Source: a virus (Duplodnaviria > Heunggongvirae > Uroviricota > Caudoviricetes). Taken from it: 10,791 nt of DNA. Below the pieces are notes generated by a model. It was not told where the DNA came from, did no database searches, and saw nothing but the letters and a program-made list of their open reading frames with translations. Where the stretch lies: IMG/VR virus record IMGVR_UViG_2802429244_000006, positions 1 through 10,791 of that record. The stretch is one strand, 5' to 3'. Both the position numbers and the translations under genes were made by a program. The stretch's first letter is position 1, and each line of letters starts with the position of its first letter. Shown in pieces: positions 1 to 10,791 of this stretch.

Positions 1-49
1 GATTTCCCACGCGAATTTTCATCGCTTTCACCATCAGCTCCATGCTCAT
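1..49 (-). CDS. Hypothetical protein, N-terminal 16 codons only (gene runs off the window start)
   Basis: ATG at 49-47 (minus) with GGAGG at 60-56, 6 nt upstream; ATG overlaps the TGA of the upstream gene (ATGA). Translation MSMELMVKAMKIRVGN... Confidence 0.4.
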   Translation of the reverse strand, partial: MSMELMVKAMKIRVGN

Positions 50-270
50 AACACACCTCCCAGGCGTTTAAACATTTTTCCGGACTGAAACACCGCCAGT
101 GGATAACTGATGGTGTAGTTACGCCCCAGTAATTCACACACAACTTTCTGGCTTTCGGTGCTGACCAGGCAAACCCGCAGAACGTGACCGTTGCTGGTGG
201 CGAACCACTGCCCCACACGGGGGCAACGGTTGTATCGGTGATACAGCGAATTCACAACGCGACGAATCAT
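46..270 (-). CDS. Hypothetical phage protein (74 aa)
   Basis: ORF-track ORF; ATG at 270-268 overlaps upstream TGA (ATGA); GGAGG 7 nt upstream (282-278). No recognisable domain. Confidence 0.5.
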   Translation of the reverse strand: MIRRVVNSLYHRYNRCPRVGQWFATSNGHVLRVCLVSTESQKVVCELLGRNYTISYPLAVFQSGKMFKRLGGVL

Positions 271-282
271 GGACGCACCTCC
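265..282. repeat. Copy 1 of an 18-nt gene-junction repeat (aatcatggacgcacctcc); 17/18 identical to 456..473
   Basis: Direct comparison of the two stretches; on the minus strand each copy carries GGAGG, the upstream stop and the downstream ATG. Confidence 0.8.
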
Positions 283-461
283 GCTGTTGTGATGTATTTA
301 ACCGGGCTGCCTTTCATTGCGATGGTTTCACACATCTCCGCGGCTTTACGTTCCGCTGTTTTCCTGGATTTATAGCGGCGGTGCCAGACAGATGTATCCG
401 TGCGAACTGATACATCGTTTCTGTATTCCGTTGTAGAAATAATAATTTCGTAACTAATCAT
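267..461 (-). CDS. Hypothetical phage protein (64 aa from the internal ATG; the ORF track extends to 476)
   Basis: ATG at 461-459 overlaps the TGA of the 493-aa ORF (ATGA) and has GGAGG 8 nt upstream (474-470). The upstream ATG at 476 has no SD. Translation MISYEIIISTTEYRNDV...AEVRP. Confidence 0.45.
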   Translation of the reverse strand: MISYEIIISTTEYRNDVSVRTDTSVWHRRYKSRKTAERKAAEMCETIAMKGSPVKYITTAEVRP

Positions 462-473
462 GGACGCGCCTCC
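456..473. repeat. Copy 2 of the 18-nt gene-junction repeat (aatcatggacgcgcctcc)
   Basis: 17/18 identity with 265..282; same relationship to stop/start codons on the minus strand. Confidence 0.8.
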
Positions 474-1939
474 CATTGATTACGGCGGAAAGCGGTGTGA
501 TTCAGGTGGGTTTCAGCTTCACGGAATGCTTCAATACAGCTCTCGTAGTACCGCATTGTGCGCAGACTTAACCCAAGCTGAAGCATCATCAGGCCATCAA
601 GGGTGATGTAATAACCACGCAGGGAGTCACCATAGATGTGATAAGTGCCCGGTATGAAATTGCGGGTAAAAAAATCGCGCGAGCAGTTCAGATACTCGAT
701 TTTGTCGACGATGTTCTGGTGCATGCGCTTGAAGTGGCAGGCAACATGCAGGGAGAAAATAACGGCCTTGCCGTTGACAACTTCAATTTTCAGGTATGGG
801 GAAGTTGGGACTGTAGCCATGATGGCAGCCTCCTTGAGCAGTGAAAAACTTCCACCACCGGAGCTGCGAAACTCATGGGTGGTGAACTGAACAGGGTTCG
901 CAGTACCGGCGCTCAAGGAAACCGGCGAGCCTTTCGGCTCCCCTGCCCAGCCCACCATAATTCTGGCATGCGCGAGCATGGACGATAAAAAAGACGCTGG
1001 CGCGTCGTATATCGCCTCGAGCAATTCCGGGCTGCGACCCCCGGCACCCGCTTTATAAGGTGCGGAGACAGTGTAACGTCCCGAAATTGCAGAATCAATA
1101 TTTAGGCTTGAAACATTCATATGCTTACTGGTATTTTTACTAACGCAAATGTTCTTGGATGTTACTGGCTTACTTCTCTGTGAAGTTGCCTTTACCAACG
1201 TTGAGCGAGCCGGGTCACTACCCGGCTTTTTTTCACCGCTGCCAACCAATAACCTGAAATAACCCCATTTTCGGGTGATACCAGCGAGTCCCTCGCGGTT
1301 CTGCTTCCTCCATAACCCGATAAAAGCAGCCATAAACGGTTCCACAGCAACAATTGCGCGACGTGACAACAATCCGTCCGGCGTCATGAACTCATGGGTG
1401 TCTGTAGGAATTTGATAGGCGTTCACCAGATTGCGGCATTTATCATCTGACAAACCGGTTTTTGCTTTCAGTTGGCGATATCCGGCATAGCCCTCACGAA
1501 TGGTACCCCTTTTGATTTGCTCAACTGTTTCGGCAACATGGCTGACTTTTTCTTCCACCTGAGTGATCCGTTTCTGCTGACGAACGGCTTCAAGAGCCAT
1601 CGCAGCAACCATTTCGATTTCGCTCATTGGCTTACGGATCTGTTCTTCCAGTTCGCGCCAGCGATCTACCAGGCGAGCAGTGAATTCAGGACAGAGCTGT
1701 GCGACGACAATGATGCTGTCGCGCTTACCTTGTTCTCCTTCAAACAGGTAATGCTCATATTGAACTTTAAAACCTAAGTTATTGATTTTCTCGGAAACAG
1801 CCATTGGCGGTTTCCGGATGATGTTTTTAGCAACCAGGCGTTCGATACTACGTTTAACATCTGAGTGCTGACTACCCACCAGCTCTGCGATCTCAACGCT
1901 GGTCATGGATGCTTTATCGTTAAAAATTGCGGTGTTCAC
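458..1939 (-). CDS. Rha-family phage regulatory protein (antirepressor-like), 493-aa composite ORF; possibly a fusion or read-through of two ancestral genes
   Basis: GTG start at 1939-1937 with AAGGAGG 5 nt upstream. N-terminus (MTSVEIAELVGSQHSDVKRSIERLV...) fits the Phage_pRha pattern. Residues about 230-370 are low-complexity (S/K/G/P-rich) and overlap an AT-rich stretch and a plus-strand terminator. A distinct C-terminal region starts near MATVPTSPYLKIEVVNGK. Confidence 0.65.
   Translation of the reverse strand: MNTAIFNDKASMTSVEIAELVGSQHSDVKRSIERLVAKNIIRKPPMAVSEKINNLGFKVQYEHYLFEGEQGKRDSIIVVAQLCPEFTARLVDRWRELEEQIRKPMSEIEMVAAMALEAVRQQKRITQVEEKVSHVAETVEQIKRGTIREGYAGYRQLKAKTGLSDDKCRNLVNAYQIPTDTHEFMTPDGLLSRRAIVAVEPFMAAFIGLWRKQNREGLAGITRKWGYFRLLVGSGEKKPGSDPARSTLVKATSQRSKPVTSKNICVSKNTSKHMNVSSLNIDSAISGRYTVSAPYKAGAGGRSPELLEAIYDAPASFLSSMLAHARIMVGWAGEPKGSPVSLSAGTANPVQFTTHEFRSSGGGSFSLLKEAAIMATVPTSPYLKIEVVNGKAVIFSLHVACHFKRMHQNIVDKIEYLNCSRDFFTRNFIPGTYHIYGDSLRGYYITLDGLMMLQLGLSLRTMRYYESCIEAFREAETHLNHTAFRRNQWEARP
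1208..1233 (+). terminator. Rho-independent terminator-like hairpin on the plus strand, inside the minus-strand Rha ORF
   Basis: Stem GCCGGGT (1209-1215), loop CACT, stem ACCCGGC (1220-1226), then TTTTTTT (1227-1233). Upstream flank is not A-rich, so it is directional for the plus strand. Confidence 0.5.
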
Positions 1940-1976
1940 TGATACCTCCTTACGGATAAATTATTGGGATCACGGT

Positions 1977-2723
1977 TCAGCACTTCTCAGTTACGCGCTT
2001 TTTCCAGAGCCATGCATCCCTATAAGCAGCCTCGATCCCATGGCATATCCGCATATCCTGAAACCAATGCTTCCGTTCCCATATCTGCCAAGATCGAGGT
2101 TTAATGCGATCGCTGATGCCTGTGATGGAGAACATAGCCAGTACGGGTACTTTCAGGCGTCTTCCTTTCTGGATATGCTTACGCCAGTCATTGCGAAGAT
2201 TTGCCCGCATGCTGAAATAAGCACCAACAGGAAATGCAACAAGAAATGCCGCTACCTGAACAAAAAGGAGTCGCCAGAAATTATGGGAATCATCTGGAGT
2301 GAGTTTGTTCTTCTGTTCAATACCAAACCGCGCCTTGTTACCTTCATCTGGACGGTTAGTGCTTTTGGACTTGGCGCCTGGCTCGGACACTGGCTTGCCA
2401 AAAATCGAGATAAGCGGAAAGAGTTCAATGCCGTCGCTGATGAATTGTTCCTGATCCTTGACGCCTTCCGCGAGGGTTGCCGAGACGGAAAACGGGATAT
2501 GCCACATATATCCAGAGACGATTTCAGAAGACTGCGCCCTCACCTGAGCAGCAGACAAGCACGAAGTTACCAACAAGCCGTAGATAACTTTTTTAACGCA
2601 CTGAAAGCTAGTGAGCTCTATGAAGACAGGCGGATTGTTCCGGTTATCAAAACTCCCGCAGAAATTCTTCCCAGCCTTAACACGCTGATTAAGTTTCTGA
2701 AGCATCGCTAAGCACTGTGACAT
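1977..2723 (-). CDS. Hypothetical protein (248 aa) with one predicted hydrophobic segment
   Basis: ATG at 2723-2721 with GGAGG 6 nt upstream (2734-2730), one nt after the stop of the upstream 75-aa ORF; 37 nt before the Rha gene RBS. A 268-aa ORF on the opposite strand (1905..2711) covers the same DNA, so the coding strand is not certain. Confidence 0.5.
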   Translation of the reverse strand: MSQCLAMLQKLNQRVKAGKNFCGSFDNRNNPPVFIELTSFQCVKKVIYGLLVTSCLSAAQVRAQSSEIVSGYMWHIPFSVSATLAEGVKDQEQFISDGIELFPLISIFGKPVSEPGAKSKSTNRPDEGNKARFGIEQKNKLTPDDSHNFWRLLFVQVAAFLVAFPVGAYFSMRANLRNDWRKHIQKGRRLKVPVLAMFSITGISDRIKPRSWQIWERKHWFQDMRICHGIEAAYRDAWLWKKRVTEKC

Positions 2724-2724
2724 A

Positions 2725-2952
2725 TCACACCTCCGATTGCTTACCTTGCCCCTCTTCTGTGTGCGCTAAATCAGGATGGATATACGGGATACTTGGATCC
2801 AGATGGCAGAGAATAGCTACGTCCTCTGGAACACCTCTCGTTTTCCACTTTCCAACACCTTGACTGCCACGAGGCTTTCCTTTCTTTGGGAATCTGCGGC
2901 CAATAGCGGCATTGGTTTTAAATTGAGTTTTTAATATTTCATAAAGGGTCAT
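2725..2952 (-). CDS. Hypothetical small basic protein (75 aa) in the cro-equivalent position
   Basis: First ORF leftward of the divergent region next to the CI-like gene. Weak SD. No obvious helix-turn-helix. Lys/Arg-rich centre (GRRFPKKGKPRGSQGVGKWKTRG). Confidence 0.3.
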   Translation of the reverse strand: MTLYEILKTQFKTNAAIGRRFPKKGKPRGSQGVGKWKTRGVPEDVAILCHLDPSIPYIHPDLAHTEEGQGKQSEV

Positions 2953-3063
2953 TCTTTAGTCTCACACCGGATACTCTGTTATCCAAGAATGTTAAACGCG
3001 AGAATCCAAAGTATCAAGAGATTCTGTTACTTTAGTATCAGCAGCCATGAAAGGAGAAGAAAA
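2953..3063. promoter_or_regulatory. Divergent operator/promoter region (OR-like) between the cro-position gene and the CI-like repressor
   Basis: 111-bp gap between divergent genes. Candidate leftward sigma-70 promoter on the minus strand: TTGATA (3017-3012), 17-nt spacer, TAACAT (2994-2989). GTATCA motifs at 3011-3016 and 3035-3040; the 10-mer aaagtatcaa (3008-3017) recurs at 3747-3756. Confidence 0.4.
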
Positions 3064-3720
3064 ATGAAATCTTTAGGTGAACGCCTCATCAACGCACGAC
3101 AAAAAGCTGGGTTAACGCAAGATGCGTTGGCTAAAAAAGCAGGGGTCACCAGAGTTGCAATCAGTAAAGCCGAGCAAGGCCTTACAAAAAGTTTCAACGG
3201 TGACACCCTTTTTAAAGTCGCAGCTGCACTGCAGTGTTCACCGCAGTGGCTTCAGAGCGGAGATGAAAAAGATAAGCATTGGGAAAATAATGTTAAGAGC
3301 TGCCCACAGAGAGACACAGCACACTCTTACCCTGTAATTAACTGGGTTCAGGCAGGATTATTCGCAACTGCTGGTGATGACTACAACATGTATGATCAGG
3401 ATAACTGGAGGCATTCTGTAAAATACGCTGGTGAGAGGGGGTTCTGGCTGGAAGTGCACGGAGACTCAATGACTTCGCCCGTAGGAATAACATTTCCTGA
3501 AGGAATGTCGATCCTTGTCAACCCAGATAAAGAAGTTTTTTCAGGGTGTTACGTCATCGCCAGAAAAAAATCCACCAATGAAGCAACATTCAAAAAATAT
3601 ATTTCTGAAATGGGAAAGGCGTTTCTAAAGCCCCTTAATCCACAATATCCAATCATAGAAATGGACAATGATTGCGAAATAGTAGGTGTTGTAGTTGATG
3701 CCAGGTGGGATATTTTCTGA
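3064..3720 (+). CDS. cI: Lambda-CI-like repressor (N-terminal XRE-type HTH, C-terminal LexA/S24-like autoproteolytic domain), 218 aa
   Basis: ATG 3064 with AGGAG 7 nt upstream. HTH: LINARQKAGLTQDALAKKAGVTRVAISKAEQG. C-terminal GDSM (catalytic Ser), FKK (Lys) and LNPQYP closely resemble the lambda CI C-terminal domain. Candidate Ala-Gly cleavage sites in VQAGLFATAGDD. The ORF-track start at 2989 lacks an RBS. Confidence 0.9.
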   Translation: MKSLGERLINARQKAGLTQDALAKKAGVTRVAISKAEQGLTKSFNGDTLFKVAAALQCSPQWLQSGDEKDKHWENNVKSCPQRDTAHSYPVINWVQAGLFATAGDDYNMYDQDNWRHSVKYAGERGFWLEVHGDSMTSPVGITFPEGMSILVNPDKEVFSGCYVIARKKSTNEATFKKYISEMGKAFLKPLNPQYPIIEMDNDCEIVGVVVDARWDIF

Positions 3721-3823
3721 CCAGACTCAAAACACAAAAAGAAACAAAAGTATCAAAAATCACTTGCCACACCTTGATACCTTAGTTACCATAAAACAAA
3801 GTTCGTAACTGAGGTATCATCTC
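3721..3823 (+). promoter_or_regulatory. OL/pL-like operator-promoter region with an inverted repeat GTATCAA-N17-TTGATAC (3750..3780)
   Basis: Inverted repeat arms at 3750-3756 and 3774-3780. Candidate promoter TTGCCA (3764-3769), 17-nt spacer, TACCAT (3787-3792). Shares the aaagtatcaa 10-mer with the OR-like region. Confidence 0.4.
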
Positions 3824-4240
3824 ATGATCAATAAAGCTACAACTCTTGACTGTCTTGAAGAACTGAAAAACCTCGGCAGTCTCATTACACTAATAGCCAA
3901 AGCAACGCCAGATGCTACGCTCTCTGGCGATATCGAGTCATGCGCAGGACTGGCATGGGATATGACAAATAGCATATCCAGAAAGCTATCGTCAGCAATG
4001 CTTTTACAGAACAAAAATTCTGCAATCAACAACCGTCTTCGCACCCAACGCGAAGCCTGCGGCTTAACAACCGCCGAACTCGCCAGGCTGCTCGATCTCG
4101 ATGAAGAAATTATCATCCAGTGGGAGAGCGGAGAGTGTGAACCAACCATCAGTATGCTTATCCCACTGGCAAATATTCTTGGCTGCGATCCGATGTGGCT
4201 GTTAACCGGTAAACCAACAGCAGGAGATACTTGCGCATGA
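3824..4240 (+). CDS. Helix-turn-helix (XRE-family) DNA-binding protein, 138 aa, HTH in the C-terminal half
   Basis: ATG 3824 with GAGG 9 nt upstream. HTH-like segment LRTQREACGLTTAELARLLDLDEEIIIQWESGECEPTISMLIPLANILG. First gene after the CI-like repressor on the same strand. Confidence 0.65.
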   Translation: MINKATTLDCLEELKNLGSLITLIAKATPDATLSGDIESCAGLAWDMTNSISRKLSSAMLLQNKNSAINNRLRTQREACGLTTAELARLLDLDEEIIIQWESGECEPTISMLIPLANILGCDPMWLLTGKPTAGDTCA

Positions 4241-4602
4241 AAAAGTTCAAAAACATAACCGTTCTCCATGTTGATTACTTTGATTATACAAACCCGGACC
4301 TTCTCCCGGAGGTTGTAAAAGCAATAGATGTTGCCGATATAGTGATTAGAGGAAAGAGAATTGTCAAAAACAGGCTCGCATGCACTTCAGGAGCAATGAC
4401 AGAAACAACCTCACAGCAAGATAATTACGAAGGCATTTGTCTGGAGCCTGATTCATTTGCGGTAAATGTTTATCATTTATTGCATGCAACACAGGTATTA
4501 CATATGTCCAGTAATCACGAAACGAAAATACTCGGCAGCGAAATTCTGAATTTTGCATGTGAGTATGCAAAAGCTGCTGCCGAAAAAGAATTAGCGCAAT
4601 AA
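4237..4602 (+). CDS. Hypothetical protein (121 aa), translationally coupled to the upstream HTH gene
   Basis: ATG 4237 overlaps the upstream TGA (ATGA); AGGAG 10 nt upstream. No recognisable domain. AT-rich codon usage. Confidence 0.55.
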   Translation: MKKFKNITVLHVDYFDYTNPDLLPEVVKAIDVADIVIRGKRIVKNRLACTSGAMTETTSQQDNYEGICLEPDSFAVNVYHLLHATQVLHMSSNHETKILGSEILNFACEYAKAAAEKELAQ

Positions 4603-4800
4603 CAACAAATATGCTCTGAACGTTTATTACGGTTTTATCGCCGGGGATTGTTACAACCTTTATTCACAGATGGAACTCAGTTATGACTTTCCTGAAAAAT
4701 AAGGCATCGTATAAAACTGCCTGCCTCATTGCACAACATGGAGATTCTTATCTTCATATAGCCAACCTGTATTTGCGCAAAGCATATGGGAGATAAATAA

Positions 4801-4989
4801 ATGAAAGAAAAACAACAGAACATAACACATAAAAAAGTAAGAGTGTTGCTAACCATTGAAAATGGTGAAGTAATTTACTCAAAACATCTGTTGGATAATG
4901 AATTCGTTGGCTGCATGGATACATTTCTGTGGATGGCAAAAAGAGCTGGCTACACGATTATTCCACCAGCAAAGGAGCAAACATTATGA
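4801..4989 (+). CDS. Hypothetical small protein (62 aa)
   Basis: ATG 4801 with GGGAG 8 nt upstream; follows a 198-bp AT-rich intergenic region; stop overlaps the next start (ATGA). Confidence 0.5.
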   Translation: MKEKQQNITHKKVRVLLTIENGEVIYSKHLLDNEFVGCMDTFLWMAKRAGYTIIPPAKEQTL

Positions 4990-5567
4990 ATAATTCAGAG
5001 TTCCGACCAGAAGTTACGCCACATGGCATAAAAATTGGCAATACAACCATTGATTATGTTGAGGCCGTACAGCGACTTAATAATGGTGAATACGATTATC
5101 CAAATTCACACGGTTTAAGAATCCTTCAGTGTCTTGCAGAAGCCGATGATGCCAGATTACTGGGAAGATTTTCAGTCGATATGAAAGTTACTCAATGGCG
5201 CTGGCTGTATGTGACAACGTTTATAAATGAAGAAGAAGGCAAGAACGGCACCATTGATATCCCTAACGATAACGGAACTACAGATCGCGCAGTTATTTAT
5301 AAGGGGAAGCATGGTTGCATGAGTATATACCCAGGACCACTTCGCATTGCCCTGCAGAACCATGTCGAATGGGGATTTATTGAAAAATATGGCGAAGCTG
5401 AAGGCATGGGGCGAGTTCTGTTTCTCTATCAAAAAATGCTCATCGCAGATCCTGATAATGGTTTCATTGTCTCTGCTATGGGGCGCGAAGGGCTTGAACT
5501 CCTTCTGGATGAAATGATTCATGATCTGAATACTCATGGTATGCCAGAAGCACCAGTGACACATTAA
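4986..5567 (+). CDS. Hypothetical protein (193 aa)
   Basis: ATG 4986 with AGGAG (4973-4977) 8 nt upstream; ATGA overlap with the preceding ORF. The ORF-track start at 4929 is an upstream extension without an RBS. No recognisable domain. Confidence 0.6.
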   Translation: MNNSEFRPEVTPHGIKIGNTTIDYVEAVQRLNNGEYDYPNSHGLRILQCLAEADDARLLGRFSVDMKVTQWRWLYVTTFINEEEGKNGTIDIPNDNGTTDRAVIYKGKHGCMSIYPGPLRIALQNHVEWGFIEKYGEAEGMGRVLFLYQKMLIADPDNGFIVSAMGREGLELLLDEMIHDLNTHGMPEAPVTH

Positions 5568-5612
5568 ATATTAAGAAGAATATAATTCTTTCGTTTTTTA
5601 CTAACCGTTTAT

Positions 5613-5720
5613 ATGAAAAGCAACCGTGAATTAAACAGAGTAAAACTAATTTTAATCCTTGCCACAGTGCTGATACTAACTGAAATCATTATTCTCTTTA
5701 TTGCGCTGTCAGTCGGTTAA
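5613..5720 (+). CDS. Putative small hydrophobic peptide (35 aa, one predicted transmembrane helix)
   Basis: Not in the ORF track (under 60 aa). ATG 5613 to TAA 5718-5720: MKSNRELNRVKLILILATVLILTEIIILFIALSVG. No SD, so low confidence. Confidence 0.25.
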   Translation: MKSNRELNRVKLILILATVLILTEIIILFIALSVG

Positions 5721-5743
5721 AAATATCGGGATACCACAGACCA

Positions 5744-5932
5744 ATGAGACTGTATTTCACAATAGTAATTTTACTGGCAATTATCGCATGTATTTACGGA
5801 TTACTTGTTCCGTTCCTTATATCCATGAAGGATACGATAGCAGTTATTTCTGGCTTTGCACTGGCGTTTCTGACCCCGCCCTGCATTTATGCCATTTACA
5901 AGGGGCTTTCTTTCACTAAGGATAAAAGATGA
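5744..5932 (+). CDS. Small membrane protein (62 aa, two predicted transmembrane helices)
   Basis: ORF-track ORF; hydrophobic stretches IVILLAIIACIYGLLVPFLI and AVISGFALAFLTPPCIYAIY; stop overlaps the ATG of the SPFH gene (ATGA). Weak or absent SD; alternative in-frame ATG at 5825. Confidence 0.45.
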   Translation: MRLYFTIVILLAIIACIYGLLVPFLISMKDTIAVISGFALAFLTPPCIYAIYKGLSFTKDKR

Positions 5933-6756
5933 AAAAAATTATTTTTGCTTTAGCCATTGTTCTGCCGACTATTGGCCTTGTCGGTTGCGATCGCGTTGAA
6001 CCAGGTAATGTTGGCATCAAGGTAAATAAACTGGGCGACGACAAAGGCGTCGGTGAGGTGGTCGGTGTTGGTCGCTACTGGACTGGCTGGAATACTGAAG
6101 TTTATATCTTCCCCACCTTCAAGCAAATGAAGACCTACGATGAACCGTTCAGTTTCCAGATGAGTGACGGTACAACCATCGGCTATCACATTGGCGTGGC
6201 CTACAAAGTTGATCCATCCAAAGTTACCACGGTGTTTCAGACCTACCGCAAAGGCGTGGATGACATTACAGACACCGACCTGCGCCAGAAGATCGCCGAC
6301 GCACTCAACCGACTGGCCAGCAAAATGACCACTGACAAATTTATCGACGGCGGCAAGTCTGAGCTGCTGGATGAAGCTCTTAAAGACATTCAGGCAGAGA
6401 TGACACCTATCGGTATTCAGGTAATGAGCCTCTCATATGTGGGTAAGCCGGAGTACCCGCCAACCGTTATCGACAGCATTAATGCCAAAGTCACGGCGAA
6501 CCAGAAAACCCTACAACGCGAGCAGGAAGTTAAACAGCGCGAAGCGGAAGCCAACATGTTGCGCGCGGAAGCTGCCGGACAGGCTGATGCGATTCGCACA
6601 AAAGCCCAGGCTGAAGCCGATGCTATTCGTTTACGCGGTGAAGCTCTGCGCCAGAACCCCGGTGTTATGGAGCTGGAAGCCATCAATAAATGGAACGGCA
6701 CACTGCCGCAATACATGACCAGCGGTGCCAATACACCATTTATCCAGGTTAAATAA
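5929..6756 (+). CDS. SPFH/band-7 (prohibitin/HflK/C-like) domain lipoprotein, 275 aa
   Basis: ATG 5929 with AAGGA 6 nt upstream. Signal peptide with lipobox LVGC (Cys20). Central SPFH-like region and C-terminal Ala/Glu-rich coiled coil (QREAEANMLRAEAAGQADAIRTKAQAEADAIRLRGEA) typical of the family. Confidence 0.8.
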   Translation: MKKIIFALAIVLPTIGLVGCDRVEPGNVGIKVNKLGDDKGVGEVVGVGRYWTGWNTEVYIFPTFKQMKTYDEPFSFQMSDGTTIGYHIGVAYKVDPSKVTTVFQTYRKGVDDITDTDLRQKIADALNRLASKMTTDKFIDGGKSELLDEALKDIQAEMTPIGIQVMSLSYVGKPEYPPTVIDSINAKVTANQKTLQREQEVKQREAEANMLRAEAAGQADAIRTKAQAEADAIRLRGEALRQNPGVMELEAINKWNGTLPQYMTSGANTPFIQVK

Positions 6757-6796
6757 CTTATATGCCCGGCAGGCCGCCGGGCTAAGGGAAAAGCAG

Positions 6797-7156
6797 ATGA
6801 ACACCCATAATGCCCAACCGCAAATAATGAACTATGACCCGAATCTGACGTCATGCGGACGCATGGCAAAACAAACCGTTCGATTAACTTTCGGGTTATG
6901 GGAATACCGCGAAACATTCGAAGTTACTGTCGGCGGCAATCTGACCGGGCTGGATGTTATCAGTTGCGCTATTGAAAGCCTGTACGCAACGCTGCTTTAT
7001 GAAGAAGTCGAGGATGAGCGCGATATCATAGCCACCATTAATATCGGCGGACTGGAATGCAAGGATGAAAACCTGTCCGGAGAGCTCTGGCTTGCCGGGA
7101 TGCTTATCTCAGCAGAAATTATCAGTATTGAACCCGCAACAAACATACGGCTCTGA
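6797..7156 (+). CDS. Hypothetical protein (119 aa)
   Basis: ATG 6797 with AAGGGA 7 nt upstream; in frame with the longer ORF-track ORF 6725..7156, whose start would overlap the SPFH gene. No recognisable domain. Confidence 0.5.
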   Translation: MNTHNAQPQIMNYDPNLTSCGRMAKQTVRLTFGLWEYRETFEVTVGGNLTGLDVISCAIESLYATLLYEEVEDERDIIATINIGGLECKDENLSGELWLAGMLISAEIISIEPATNIRL

Positions 7157-7187
7157 AGTTCTCACTATTCAGAGAGCAGGAGAAAAA

Positions 7188-7430
7188 ATGTTCGCTTTGA
7201 TTAATCAGGGACAGCTGTATACCGACAGTGCCGGTTACCCGGTAAAAATTATTCGCTGCATAAATAACACTGTGTTGTACAGAAGAATGGATGGGCGAAC
7301 ACAGTCGGTAAAAATAAACGATTTTAATGAACTGTTTGAACGACTCGATCACCAGGAATACCGACAAATTCTGGCAGAAACAGAACAGGAAACTCATCTG
7401 AAAAAATTACGAGCCATGAAAAGGAAGTAA
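7188..7430 (+). CDS. Hypothetical small phage protein (80 aa)
   Basis: ATG 7188 with AGGAG 5 nt upstream; in frame within ORF-track ORF 7065..7430. Translation MFALINQGQLYTDSAGYPVKIIRCINNTVLYRRMDGRTQ... Confidence 0.55.
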   Translation: MFALINQGQLYTDSAGYPVKIIRCINNTVLYRRMDGRTQSVKINDFNELFERLDHQEYRQILAETEQETHLKKLRAMKRK

Positions 7431-7433
7431 AGA

Positions 7434-7580
7434 ATGAATAAAGCGTTTGAACTATGGGTACGCCAGCGTTACGGCAATCGCTATGACCTGACGCGAGATG
7501 TTGACGGTTTCTACTGTCGTGAAATTGTGAAACGAATGTTTGAAGTGTGGTGCCACTGCCGTGGGCTGAATGTTGTATGA
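7434..7580 (+). CDS. Hypothetical small protein (48 aa, Cys-containing)
   Basis: Not in the ORF track. ATG 7434 with AAGGAAG 6 nt upstream. Translation MNKAFELWVRQRYGNRYDLTRDVDGFYCREIVKRMFEVWCHCRGLNVV. Confidence 0.4.
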   Translation: MNKAFELWVRQRYGNRYDLTRDVDGFYCREIVKRMFEVWCHCRGLNVV

Positions 7581-7588
7581 GGTGAACT

Positions 7589-7798
7589 GTGGGGCTGGAT
7601 TGCGTACCTATATCAACCTACTGCCGCAACGCAGGAGAAACGGTTGATGCCGTTAACAAACGGATACAAAGAGGAATATGGAAAGAAGGGGTACATGTAT
7701 TAAAAGTCGACGGAGTTAAAGAACGTTGGGTCGACTTAATGGAGATTACAAAATGGGCAAGAAAGAACAAGGATCACTATCTCTCCCTAGAGGAGTAA
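7589..7798 (+). CDS. xis: Excisionase-like DNA-binding protein (69 aa)
   Basis: GTG start 7589 with GAGGTG just upstream; sits immediately 5' of the integrase and overlaps it by 46 nt, as xis does in lambdoid phages. Motif KEGVHVLKVDGVKERWVDL is consistent with small winged-helix excisionase-like proteins. Confidence 0.55.
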   Translation: MGLDCVPISTYCRNAGETVDAVNKRIQRGIWKEGVHVLKVDGVKERWVDLMEITKWARKNKDHYLSLEE

Positions 7799-8925
7799 CT
7801 ATTCGCCAGCATAAAACTGGTAGCACTCTGGTTATCACTTTTACATATAAAGGGGTTCTGTGTCGGGAGCCCCTCTCCAGAATGGAAGTAAACGCGCGCG
7901 GTGTGAAGTACGCTGAGCGTCTGCTGGGAGAAATAAAAAATCAGATTATCGATGGTACCTTCGAATATGCAAAATACTTCCCCAACTCCCAAAAGCTGGA
8001 GTTGTTCGGGGGAGTGAAAAAAAACAAAAATATAAAATCTTACCTGGATGAATACCTGATTATCTGCCAGAACCGTAACCTGTCACCATCGACAATTAGA
8101 GGTTATGAAAAATGCCTGTCGGCGCTGTCAGCATTGCATAAATTTCATGTATCAGAACTGACACCTGCAGTACTAAAAAACTGGATCGCCAACAGAAAAA
8201 CAAAACTGAAAACTATCCGCAATAATCTTTCATTCCTGCGCAGCGCCATAGATGAAGCGGTGACCGATGGTTTGTTAACAATAAATCCTGTCACGCTAGT
8301 CAGCGCCAGCCGGTATCACGTATTGGACAACACACCAGGCAGTGATGATTACGAGGTCGATCCTTTTACACCAGCGGAGACGGCAGCAATCTATGACGCC
8401 TGTCATTACCCGGAATGGCGAAATCTGTTTCGCTTTGCCTTTAATACAGGACTGCGCAGCTCAGAATTGTGCGCGTTGCGCTGGACGGATATAGACTTTA
8501 TCGGCAACACCGCGCATGTTCAGACTGCAAGCGTAGTCGGGGTAATCAAAAGCACCAAAACAAAAGCCGGCACCCGCAAAGTGCAACTGAACAGCGAAGC
8601 GCTGGCGGCTCTTCAGGCACAAAAGCCCTACACGGCGCTAAAGAGCGACTTCATATTCAGCGATCCGAAAACTCGCGCTCCTTGGGCAAACGCAGATGCG
8701 ATCCGAAAAAAAGCCTGGGTACCAACCCTTAAAAAAGCTGGTGTACGCTATCGCAATCCGTACCAGACACGCCACACGTTCGCCACTCGGCACATTAGCC
8801 AGGGCGTTAACCTGTTCTGGCTTGCTGGTCAGATGGGGCATAAAGGACCGGAAATGCTGTTCAGACATTACGGCTCTTACCTTGCAGAATACGATGGAAA
8901 AACGGCGATTTCTGCAACCCCGTAA
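7753..8925 (+). CDS. int: Lambda-type tyrosine integrase (site-specific recombinase), 390 aa from ATG 7753
   Basis: ATG 7753 with GGAG 8 nt upstream (ORF track begins at TTG 7726). N-terminal arm-binding-like region resembling lambda Int; C-terminal catalytic motifs (LRSSELCALRW..., RHTFATRHISQG..., GHKGPEMLFRHYGSY) with the conserved Arg/His/Arg/Tyr pattern. Confidence 0.9.
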   Translation: MGKKEQGSLSLPRGVTIRQHKTGSTLVITFTYKGVLCREPLSRMEVNARGVKYAERLLGEIKNQIIDGTFEYAKYFPNSQKLELFGGVKKNKNIKSYLDEYLIICQNRNLSPSTIRGYEKCLSALSALHKFHVSELTPAVLKNWIANRKTKLKTIRNNLSFLRSAIDEAVTDGLLTINPVTLVSASRYHVLDNTPGSDDYEVDPFTPAETAAIYDACHYPEWRNLFRFAFNTGLRSSELCALRWTDIDFIGNTAHVQTASVVGVIKSTKTKAGTRKVQLNSEALAALQAQKPYTALKSDFIFSDPKTRAPWANADAIRKKAWVPTLKKAGVRYRNPYQTRHTFATRHISQGVNLFWLAGQMGHKGPEMLFRHYGSYLAEYDGKTAISATP

Positions 8926-9057
8926 CGGCAAAATATTTCAAAATGTTGTACAGAATCAGGACGTTATCGGGACAACAATATGTACGTAAAATGCACATAA
9001 TTCATTGTTTGAAAAAATAAATCGTTCATATTCAATAAATTGGATTAATCACGATCA

Positions 9058-9084
9058 CGGGTTCAACTCCCGCCAGCTCCACCA
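9058..9084 (+). other. ssrA: 27-nt copy of the 3' end of tmRNA (ssrA): T-arm 3' side plus acceptor 3' strand ending CCA; interpreted as the att core at a prophage/island junction
   Basis: CGGGTTCAACTCCCGCCAGCTCCACCA matches the E. coli tmRNA 3' terminus as I recall it (...GCGGGTTCAACTCCCGCCAGCTCCACCA). Sequence immediately 5' (cacgatca) does not match ssrA, so this is a fragment, not a complete gene. Confidence 0.75.
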
Positions 9085-9118
9085 CTTTTTAGTTGTTTGA
9101 AGTACAATGAAGTCTACT

Positions 9119-9152
9119 AAGCCCGCACAGCACAAGCTCTGCGGGCTTTTTT
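9119..9152 (+). terminator. Rho-independent terminator
   Basis: GC-rich stem AAGCCCGCA / TGCGGGCTT followed by a run of six T (9147-9152); 35 nt downstream of the ssrA-like CCA end. Confidence 0.7.
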
Positions 9153-9249
9153 ACGTCTATTGTCGTCCAGTGAGAATTGCTGAGAACTATCACTTATGGC
9201 ACCCTGAATGGGACCCACTAAGAAGGGTCCAAAAACCGAGGGTCCCAAA

Positions 9250-10479
9250 ATGGCAAAAATCGCTAAGAAGCTCACTGACACTGAAATCAAAAGCACCAAG
9301 CCAGCCGACAAAGAAATCAACTTGTTTGACGGAGATGGTTTGATACTACGAATCGCTCCCCTCTCGAAAGGAGGAAAGAAGAATTGGTATTTCAGGTATG
9401 CAGTGCCAGTCAGTAAAAAAAGAACCAAAATGAGCCTTGGGACATATCCTCACCTTACACTGGCAAGAGCCAGAGCCTTACGAGATGAATACCTTTCCTT
9501 GCTTGCTAATGGCATTGATCCCCAAGTTCATAACAACGATAAAGCTAATGCCTTAAAGAATGCTACTGAACACACTCTCCAAGCCGTGGCAAGGAAATGG
9601 TTGGATGAGAAGGTAAAGACCTCAGGTATCTCACAAGACCATGCAGCAGACATCTGGCGCAGCTTAGAGAGAAATGTCTTTCCTGGCCTGGGTAATGTCC
9701 CTATCAATGAGATCCGACCTAAGCTCTTAAAACAACACCTTGATCCTATTGAGCAACGAGGCGTATTGGAAACTCTACGCCGCATCATTTCACGTCTGAA
9801 TGAAATCTTCCGGTGGGCAGCCACTGAAGAACTTATTGAGTTCAATCCGGCTGACAACCTTGGTCAAAGATTCAGTAAACCAAAAAAGCAAAATATGCCT
9901 GCCCTTCCCCCAAGCGAATTGCCAAGGTTTATGGAATCTTTGACGAATGCGTCAATCCGGCTGGAAACACGTATGCTAATTGAATGGCAATTGTTGACAT
10001 GGGTTCGTCCGGGTGAAGCCGTTCGCGCAAGGTGGTCTGATATTGATACAACCAACAACATTTGGAACATTCCTGCTGATTTTATGAAAATGAAAAAGCC
10101 TCACAAAGTTCCTTTGAGTAAAGAAGCTTTGCACATCCTTGAATTAATGAAATCAATAAGTGGGCATAGAGAATGGGTTTTCCCCAGCATTAAAGCGCCT
10201 CTTAATCATATGCATGAACAAACAGCCAACGCAGCTATTATCCGAATGGGGTTTGGAGGCGAACTTGTAGCTCACGGTATGCGTTCGATTGCAAGAACAG
10301 CGGCAGAGGCGTCTGGTAAGTTCAGAGCTGAAGTTCTTGAGGCAGCACTCGCCCACTCTAAAAAAGATGAAATTATCGCAGCATACAATCGTGCAGAATA
10401 TCTGATAGAACGACAGAGTTTGATGCAATGGTGGAGTGATTACGTTCAAACTCAAAGAGCTAAAGCTATCGCTGCTTGA
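9250..10479 (+). CDS. int: P4-type (IntA-like) tyrosine integrase, 409 aa from ATG 9250
   Basis: ATG 9250 with GAGGG 7 nt upstream. N-terminus MAKIAKKLTDTEIKSTKPADKEINLFDGDGLILRI fits the P4-integrase arm-binding N-terminal pattern. Conserved blocks DIWRSLER, GVLETLRR, KKQNMP, ARWSDID, HGMRSIART, EAALAH, AYNRAEYL, MQWW. The ORF-track start at 9208 is an upstream extension. Confidence 0.9.
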   Translation: MAKIAKKLTDTEIKSTKPADKEINLFDGDGLILRIAPLSKGGKKNWYFRYAVPVSKKRTKMSLGTYPHLTLARARALRDEYLSLLANGIDPQVHNNDKANALKNATEHTLQAVARKWLDEKVKTSGISQDHAADIWRSLERNVFPGLGNVPINEIRPKLLKQHLDPIEQRGVLETLRRIISRLNEIFRWAATEELIEFNPADNLGQRFSKPKKQNMPALPPSELPRFMESLTNASIRLETRMLIEWQLLTWVRPGEAVRARWSDIDTTNNIWNIPADFMKMKKPHKVPLSKEALHILELMKSISGHREWVFPSIKAPLNHMHEQTANAAIIRMGFGGELVAHGMRSIARTAAEASGKFRAEVLEAALAHSKKDEIIAAYNRAEYLIERQSLMQWWSDYVQTQRAKAIAA

Positions 10480-10791
10480 CTGATACAGGGGATTAGCAAG
10501 AAGGATAGGGATAGCCTGGAAAGCCCATATACTGACGAATGCCCCTTAGCTAAAACATTCTCATCGGATTGAAAGCGCACATGTACATAAAACCAGTATA
10601 AAAACATAAGGTTATATAACTAAACTTTGATACGTATGCTTCCATATGTTTTTAGTGTTTGATATGGTGAAAAAAAGATACTGATGTTTTTTTATGCTTT
10701 CATTGCTTGTTTCCTTAGTGGGCTACCATATGGATTTCTTTGAAAAAACTAATGCTGACAAAAATTCAATAGGTTTTACCTATCAAGATTA

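Follow-up and report, generated by a model that had tools for sequence, protein, structure and literature searches.

Why should two neighbouring gene junctions in a prophage operon, joining genes whose products show no similarity to one another, be built from almost the same 18 nucleotides (nt)? The question is raised by the first 476 nt of IMG/VR virus record IMGVR_UViG_2802429244_000006, of which we analysed positions 1 to 10,791 (the whole 10,791-nt stretch is called the window). The window is the immunity/early region of a phiP27-like, Shiga toxin (Stx)-type lambdoid prophage, and its minus-strand part is the early-right (pR-type) operon, in which an ASH-family regulator gene, a 64-amino-acid (aa) gene (g64) and a 74-aa gene (g74) follow one another. 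We propose, with a probability of about 64%, that the repeat is a standardised joint between genes of the early-right operon of phiP27-like/Stx-type Escherichia coli prophages, serving both as a coupling joint and as a short conserved boundary sequence. Comparison with relatives shows that this joint is conserved among them and that it coincides precisely, time and again, with the edges of optional cassettes lying between the ASH regulator and the constant g74. The optional cassettes are g64, which the window carries, a 283-aa ASH/Rha paralog ("RhaReg") and, on the right side, a 77-aa gene (g77).

Reading the minus strand bore out what an earlier, sequence-only reading of this DNA had claimed for the junctions at 49, 270 and 461, namely a GGAGG Shine-Dalgarno (SD) sequence followed by an ATG that overlaps the preceding TGA. 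The stop/start overlaps (ATGA at 461-458, 270-267 and 49-46) lie on one strand with open reading frames (ORFs) on either side, and the same overlaps are annotated by PGAP in relatives. At all three junctions the SD lies inside the upstream coding region, with GGAGG 6-7 nt before the ATG: GGAGG 473-469 with spacer CGCGTCC at 461 (context CAATGGGAGGCGCGTCCATGATTAGT), GGAGG 282-278 with spacer TGCGTCC at 270 (context ACAGCGGAGGTGCGTCCATGATTCGT) and GGAGG 60-56 with spacer TGTGTT at 49 (context CTGGGAGGTGTGTTATGAGC). The near-identical 18-mers that had been pointed out at 265..282 and 456..473 match at 17 of 18 positions (GGAGGYGCGTCCATGATT), and the shared protein ends are likewise present: the upstream products close in ...NQWEARP* and ...TTAEVRP*, and the downstream products open with MISYE... 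and MIRRV.... These are the only two copies of the 18-mer in the window with up to three mismatches allowed, and 0 of 200 dinucleotide-preserving shuffles matched it. The repeat grows to 21 nt (262-282 vs 453-473, 19/21 identical, 191 nt apart), and a repeat search around both copies found no flank similarity beyond those 21 nt. GGAGGTG extends complementarity to the 3' end of 16S rRNA; the seven joint positions that lie outside the SD, its two extension bases and the ATGA are identical in both copies (chance ~6e-5, assuming equal base frequencies). Junction RNA and DNA fold no better than shuffles (z-scores -0.4 to +0.2), and no structure that would mask the SD was found. Two further candidate roles were considered and rejected. 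Some joint variants are loosely palindromic, as a protein-binding site might be, but on inspection no centre is consistent across variants; and a C-terminal proline is probably not a coupling requirement, as Ala, Glu, Val or Thr codons stand at the ends of other ATGA overlaps in these loci.

The close relatives of the window are E. coli prophages, phage phiP27 and many Stx-converting phages, and BLAST comparison with three E. coli strains placed the changes in gene content at the joint. Strain C311 matches the window at 1-282 and 459-4210, with a different, 77-aa gene between; N96 matches at 54-282 and 456-927, with RhaReg replacing g64; and SCU-387 matches at 45-473 and 457-1962, where RhaReg is inserted as an extra gene and the joint, duplicated because of that insertion, is present three times. 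Junctions in these strains carry joint variants such as GGAGGTGCGCCCATGATT, GGAGGCGCACCCATGATT and GGAGGTTCGCCCATGATT. A three-way alignment of ASH-g74, ASH-g64-g74 (the window's order) and ASH-RhaReg-g64-g74 loci revealed indels bounded by the joint to the base. In relatives, presence or absence of g64 is an exact 191-nt indel, and the 77-aa cassette has its left edge inside the joint, between GGAGGCGCGTC and ATGTGT.

We then surveyed 80 IMG/VR loci found via g74 and 119 found via the joint pattern. Some contigs had been fetched twice in the first gene-order tally and in the counts of high-scoring segment pair (HSP) ends, and the pairings, the 24-mer comparison, the g74 tree and the orders in 104 segments given below are de-duplicated. 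Every GGAGG-N7-ATGA match on the operon strand in the first 83 loci is one of these junctions. Clustering of 103 distinct family junctions by their flanks (200-nt and 170-nt) resolved four unrelated upstream ends, from ASH (...NQWEVRP*), RhaReg (...GSDKE[AV][RH]P*), g64 (...TTAEVRP*) and g77 (...DVQEVHP*), and three unrelated downstream starts, from g74 (MIRR/H), g64 (MISY) and RhaReg (MIRQ/H/Y). They occur in nine pairings, all of which fit GGAGG-N-[GAT][CT][GA][TC]C[CT]-ATGAT[CT].

At least eight gene orders are represented among 104 distinct 2.8-kb segments: RhaReg-g64-g74 (23 distinct segments), ASH-g74 (22), the window type ASH-g64-g74 (11), RhaReg-g74 (11), ASH-g77-g74 (5), ASH-RhaReg-g64-g74 (4), ASH-RhaReg-g74 (2-5) and a permuted ASH-g64-RhaReg-g74 (one, locus L109, with ATGA at all four junctions); RhaReg-RhaReg and RhaReg-ASH orders occur too. 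Relatives hold g64, RhaReg, g77, further ASH copies or no gene at all between joint copies. Spacing between the ASH 3' end and the g74 ATG falls into discrete classes of 12, 203, 241/243, 670, 857-902 and 1053-1062 nt, with flanks 94-97% identical to the window. When the window was compared with ~200 loci, the endpoints of 722 HSPs clustered at 282 (88), 456 (52), 459 (11), 469 (11), 473 (65) and 45-54 (140). The last cluster falls at the third junction, where the g74 3' end (GGAGGTG-N4-[A/G]TGA) is followed in relatives by at least six unrelated replication-gene 5' ends.

Mapped onto a neighbour-joining tree of g74, the state of the upstream gene requires 24 changes (minimum possible 3; shuffled mean 35, shuffled minimum 28), a number to be taken as an upper estimate because the tree rests on 219 nt and is imperfect. 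Eleven pairs of g74 alleles no more than 3 nt apart (of 219) differ in their upstream gene, and one allele, identical in sequence, occurs with two upstream genes. Several independent and recent switches of the gene upstream of g74 are needed to account for this tree and these alleles. Together, these comparisons point to a best-supported meaning that the sequence-only reading had missed: the joint is the exact boundary of optional, interchangeable gene cassettes.

Could the joint nevertheless be only a convergent, optimal coupling signal, with illegitimate recombination and selection for intact genes placing boundaries at gene ends and the shared sequence uninvolved? Translation signals alone do explain joint positions 1-7 and 13-16, that is, GGAGG, the extension bases (T/C, G) and ATGA, or ~11 of 18 bases, which counts against a role beyond translation. 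The same pattern also occurs at unrelated ORF-ORF junctions of unrelated viral contigs and in high-GC bacteria; illegitimate recombination is the favoured general model of phage mosaicism (PMC3029335), and the joint is short for homologous recombination (PMC3945230). Yet what this explanation leaves over, namely the remaining spacer bases, the first codons and whole 24-mers, is common to junctions with unrelated flanks. Identical 24-mers, such as GGAGGTGCGTCCATGATCCGCTAC, are shared by g64-g74, g64-RhaReg and RhaReg-RhaReg junctions, and across the joint family positions 8, 11 and 12 are 93-100% conserved, with variation elsewhere consisting mostly of transitions. By contrast, the spacers of 243 further distinct ATGA-overlap 18-mers from these loci look quite different (for example AGTCAGGGCAGCATGAAA and GGCGTGGGACGAATGACG), and the window's own third junction and its 248-aa gene junction use spacers other than that of the repeat; coupling alone therefore does not demand the joint sequence. 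Nor would illegitimate joins leave unrelated proteins with a common E-V-R-P tail and M-I-R head, whereas a shared four-residue tail and two- to three-residue head are found because the joint, not the protein, supplies these codons. As for the matches elsewhere, the joint plus g74-start pattern gave five in species-representative genomes, all in unrelated bacteria, which we read as chance or convergence, and singleton matches in unrelated viral contigs tell us nothing, since their sequence was fixed by the search pattern itself. On balance, we consider a purely convergent signal unlikely.

Histories in which the shared sequence matters but cassettes do not move freely were weighed against the same data. 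An ancestral ASH-RhaReg-g64-g74 array with the joint at each boundary could have suffered only losses, by slipped mispairing or unequal exchange, without insertion or reordering. Most arrangements are ordered subsets of that array, and a pair of direct repeats 191 nt apart is a textbook target for RecA-independent deletion; but such a history is improbable in view of the permuted order in L109, the RhaReg-RhaReg and RhaReg-ASH orders, the g77 cassette, an alternative occupant of this slot whose left edge falls within the joint, and the near-identical g74 alleles that carry different upstream genes in several clades. The local duplication offered by the sequence-only reading, taken here as a recent tandem duplication of a gene end or start in this genome, would account for two near-identical direct copies 191 nt apart. 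It did not survive comparison: similarity ends at 21 nt, g64 and g74 give no BLASTP match to one another at E <= 100, their flanks fall in unrelated groups, and both copies stand between the same flanks in many other prophages, making such an origin very improbable. A dedicated site-specific recombinase or nuclease that moves cassettes, in integron- or homing-like fashion, could be suspected from a repeated boundary element flanking arrayed promoterless cassettes. However, integron integrase, HNH and homing-endonuclease domains were not found in or beside the cassettes, the junction RNA and DNA lack significant structure, and the joint drifts by transitions like ordinary coding sequence; we give this idea very little credence.

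The reading we favour, a coupling joint that is also a cassette boundary, suggests the following mechanism. Each joint copy combines an extended SD (GGAGG[T/C]G), a 7-nt spacer and an ATGA joining the upstream TGA to the next ATG (M-I-...), with the spacer doubling as code for the upstream gene's last residues, E-[V/A]-[R/H]-P. Terminating ribosomes may re-initiate at the overlapping AUG, helped by the strong SD, such that the small genes would form one translationally coupled chain. Re-initiation of this kind is standard at ATGA overlaps, and chains of them typify the early-right operons of lambdoid phages (PMC8022706). Recombination or replication slippage between joint copies would then delete, insert and reorder cassettes, as is suggested by population patterns and by how upstream-gene states scatter over the g74 tree. 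Because every cassette starts with ATGAT(Y) and ends in GGAGGNNCNNCC, any two copies could exchange with genes left whole and SD spacing and overlap intact. Losses might arise by slippage between the direct repeats 191 nt apart, and gains and reordering by inter-genome homologous or relaxed recombination. Host or co-resident prophage functions would be needed because the window encodes no recognisable recombinase. In the part of PMC3029335 that cites Clark 2001 and Susskind & Botstein 1978, short conserved boundary sequences are put forward as one way in which mosaicism could arise; the general preference for illegitimate recombination is explained there by boundary sequences usually not being identifiable (PMC3029335).

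The earlier proposal of a conserved coupling element thus stands in part. The joint is kept at every such junction in related phages, which upholds conservation, and a role as a coupling element is supported as far as can be read from the sequence itself. Of the two observations named beforehand as telling against the proposal, similarity confined to the 18-mer and absence from relatives, we find the first and not the second, as the joint occurs in relatives.

Besides the softness of the 24-change count and the share of the joint that translation explains, several points weigh against exchange at the joint. To some extent, spacer variants go with the upstream gene (TTCGCCC, for example, follows RhaReg and precedes g64), and much of the pattern therefore reflects arrangements passed on vertically within their classes, not constant shuffling. 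At 18-24 nt, the joint does not exceed the length at which RecA is usually considered efficient. It is also below the ~30-bp minimum of Red-beta (PMC3945230), and no recognisable recombinase was found in the window's early-left operon. More tentatively, we raise the possibility that the joint is more than what earlier exchanges left behind, namely a selected "plug-and-play" standard, one ~20-nt module that unites a strong SD, a common protein tail and head that are tolerated (E-V-R-P; M-I-R/S), the overlap and a homology patch for recombination. If so, any joint-bearing cassette could enter, leave or change place in the operon with expression preserved, and the phage lineage would keep a small natural cassette-exchange system without a dedicated recombinase.

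A related layout precedes the 248-aa gene further up the operon. As the sequence-only reading had described, GGAGG (2734-2730) is followed by TG, a TGA (2727-2725), a single T and the ATG (2723-2721). The layout is degenerate in the four relatives examined, which have GGAGGTGTGA, AGAGGCGTGA, GAGGGCGTGA or GGAGATGTGA and then Y-ATG; the forms AGAGGCGTGAC, GAGGGCGTGAC and GGAGATGTGAC before the ATG are kept in relatives with different upstream neighbours. The pattern [G/A]GAG[G/A]YGTGAYATG was seen in loci L202 (~2987-3003), L203 (~2907-2923) and L204 (~2987-3003). The upstream neighbour varies among a cro-like gene, a YdaS-like gene, an ORF6N antirepressor and no called gene, and the layout has the look of another boundary-type joint. 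Nine homologs (38-62% identity, mostly 248 aa) have an invariant M1 and a conserved C-terminal half; by this conservation, the minus-strand gene is real.

An antisense 142-aa gene (2283-2711, plus strand; phiP27 gene L13) is fully embedded, codon-aligned, in the weakly conserved N-terminal half of the 248-aa gene and is itself conserved (39-75% identity). The plus-strand ORF, of 142-151 codons, is intact and homologous in 7 of 7 diverged loci (39-100% identity), and its product has a hydrophobic N-terminal stretch that, by eye, resembles a membrane helix. Within the overlap, substitutions are most frequent at the third position of the plus frame; outside it, they are most frequent at that of the minus frame. 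The chance of each frame staying open is ~1-9% per locus. Annotation of the pair is split: phiP27 has only the plus gene (L13), and PGAP calls only the minus gene.

Coordinates of these features and of the surrounding genes are collected in Table 1. The gene upstream of junction 461 is the 220-aa ASH-family gene, here inside a 493-aa fused ORF, and the gene between the repeats is 64 aa long (267-461), as against a mechanically called ORF of 69 aa. Searches of Pfam, NCBIfam, PADLOC and PDB sequences placed neither g64 nor g74 in a family of known function, and the matching PHROGs have no assigned function. Of 5,426 complete E. coli genomes, 314 carry g74 and 178 the body of g64; no g74 relative was found among species-representative genomes. 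In phiP27 (L198), RefSeq leaves the g74 position (1699-1917) unannotated, as a 217-nt gap between genes L16 and L17, although g74 is conserved in >170 loci.

Table 1. Joints, genes and antisense pairs discussed in the text (window coordinates unless a locus is named).
Feature	Position	Strand	Sequence or remarks
Joint copy A	453..473	-	GGAGGCGCGTCCATGATTAGT; extended SD, last four ASH codons (E-A-R-P) and TGA, 64-aa gene ATG and first codons
Joint copy B	262..282	-	GGAGGTGCGTCCATGATTCGT; SD, last four g64 codons (E-V-R-P) and TGA, 74-aa gene ATG and first codons
Third joint	46..60	-	GGAGGTGTGTTATGA; g74 stop overlapping replication-gene start; mosaic boundary too
SD / cro-like stop / one base / 248-aa gene start	2721..2734	-	GGAGGTGTGATATG; GGAGGTG-TGA-T-ATG
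LexA/cI-like repressor gene	2989-3720	+	divergent from minus-strand operon
cro-like gene, 75 aa	2725..2952	-	PHROG 4749; first of rightward operon
248-aa early-operon gene	1977..2723	-	real gene; conserved C-terminal half
Rha regulator	5' part of 493-aa fused ORF 458-1939	-	upstream of ASH gene
ASH-family regulator gene, 220 aa	458..1120	-	ASH domain and Rha-like domain
g64, 64 aa, optional cassette	267..461	-	PHROG 7046; joint on both sides
g74, 74 aa, constant "anchor"	46..270	-	PHROG 1153; precedes replication-initiator gene
Replication-initiator-like (O-like, helix-turn-helix) gene, 5' end	1..49	-	MSMELMVKAMKIRVGN...; runs off window
Antisense-pair loci besides the window	L199 3710-4534; L200 900-1568; L202 3001-3747; L203 2921-3664; L204 3001-3747; L205 15-788		

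Rha and ASH are separate genes in E. coli C311 and are joined in the window as the 493-aa ORF (458-1939), by two single-base deletions relative to C311, near 1319-1330 and 1173-1185, one of them in a T run. The join is either a genuine frameshift (a Rha pseudogene or a fusion) or else a sequencing error; within the fused ORF, the ATG of ASH at 1120 is retained. On the plus strand at 1207-1228, in the Rha-ASH intergenic region and antisense to the operon, lies a strong terminator-like hairpin (9 pairs and a T run). ASH and RhaReg are paralogs, each with an ASH N-domain and a Rha-like domain. In this region (loci L002 4059-5111, L090, L033/L034 and L047) there are extra ASH copies and, in strain N96, an internally duplicated 350-aa ASH. 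A conserved ASH-domain stretch of ~80 nt (window 1023-1101) is a further site at which homology often breaks off. At the far end of the window, at 7589-8925 (plus strand), a prophage integrase follows an excisionase-like ORF, and a second integrase, of the P4/CP4-57 type, lies at 9208-10479 (plus strand). Between them is a fragment (~9046-9085, GGGTTCAACTCCCGCCAGCTCCACCA) that we take to be the 3' end of ssrA/tmRNA, and ARAGORN found no full tmRNA in the window; the order of integrase, ssrA-like fragment and second integrase suggests tandem integration at ssrA.

How does the joint compare with known systems? A literature search, whose reach did not extend to the original linker papers, found the general concepts and no description of this joint. 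The ATGA overlaps of lambdoid nin/early-right genes (Kroger & Hobom 1982; Cheng et al. 1995), as covered where PMC8022706 cites them, form the same tight chains of small genes in the same operon type, with coupling presumed; unlike the joint described here, they are not reported there to share a common 18-24-nt sequence. Morons resemble g64, g77 and RhaReg in being optional genes between conserved neighbours, but they carry their own promoter and terminator, whereas the cassettes here are ATGA-fused into the operon and no promoter-like or terminator-like sites were found in window 1-476. Integron arrays likewise consist of promoterless cassettes with a repeated boundary element and variable content and order. 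They depend on IntI and structured attC sites, whereas the joint is an unstructured translation signal of 18-24 nt; attC sites are 57-141 nt long. IntI was not found, and the only integrases are prophage/island tyrosine integrases far from the array. Bzymek and Lovett are said to have described, in 2001, deletion between short direct repeats by replication slippage. Slippage between 19/21 repeats 191 nt apart would yield exactly the ASH-g74 joint seen in 22 distinct relatives; it explains losses only, and the gains, replacements and permuted order seen here are not covered.

The nearest counterparts are the lambdoid linkers (Susskind & Botstein 1978; Clark et al. 2001, on HK620), as presented in the passages of PMC3029335 and PMC3945230 that cite them: like the joint, they recur at the borders of non-homologous modules, with breakpoints falling on them. 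Unlike those linkers, the joint is an SD/stop/start site that is partly coding, supplying the tail and head of the flanking proteins, and it is only 18-24 nt long and flanks single small genes in phiP27-like/Stx-type prophages. It has long been debated whether phage mosaicism comes from homologous exchange at short stretches of shared sequence or from illegitimate joins made at random and then filtered by selection (PMC3945230, PMC3029335), a question hard to settle partly because conserved boundary sequences are seldom identifiable. This locus offers an unusually clean natural case, with one joint at several adjacent boundaries, many arrangements in sequenced E. coli prophages, Stx-converting phages among them, and base-exact indels, and it offers a tractable system in which to measure the frequency of exchange at so short a patch and the recombination functions involved. 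The joint would also account for the inconsistent gene content and annotation of this region in phiP27-like/Stx prophages, and it suggests that a translation signal and a recombination patch can be one sequence. Collectively, we regard the joint as a new, unusually clear example of the Susskind-Botstein/Clark "linkers" already known in phage evolution.

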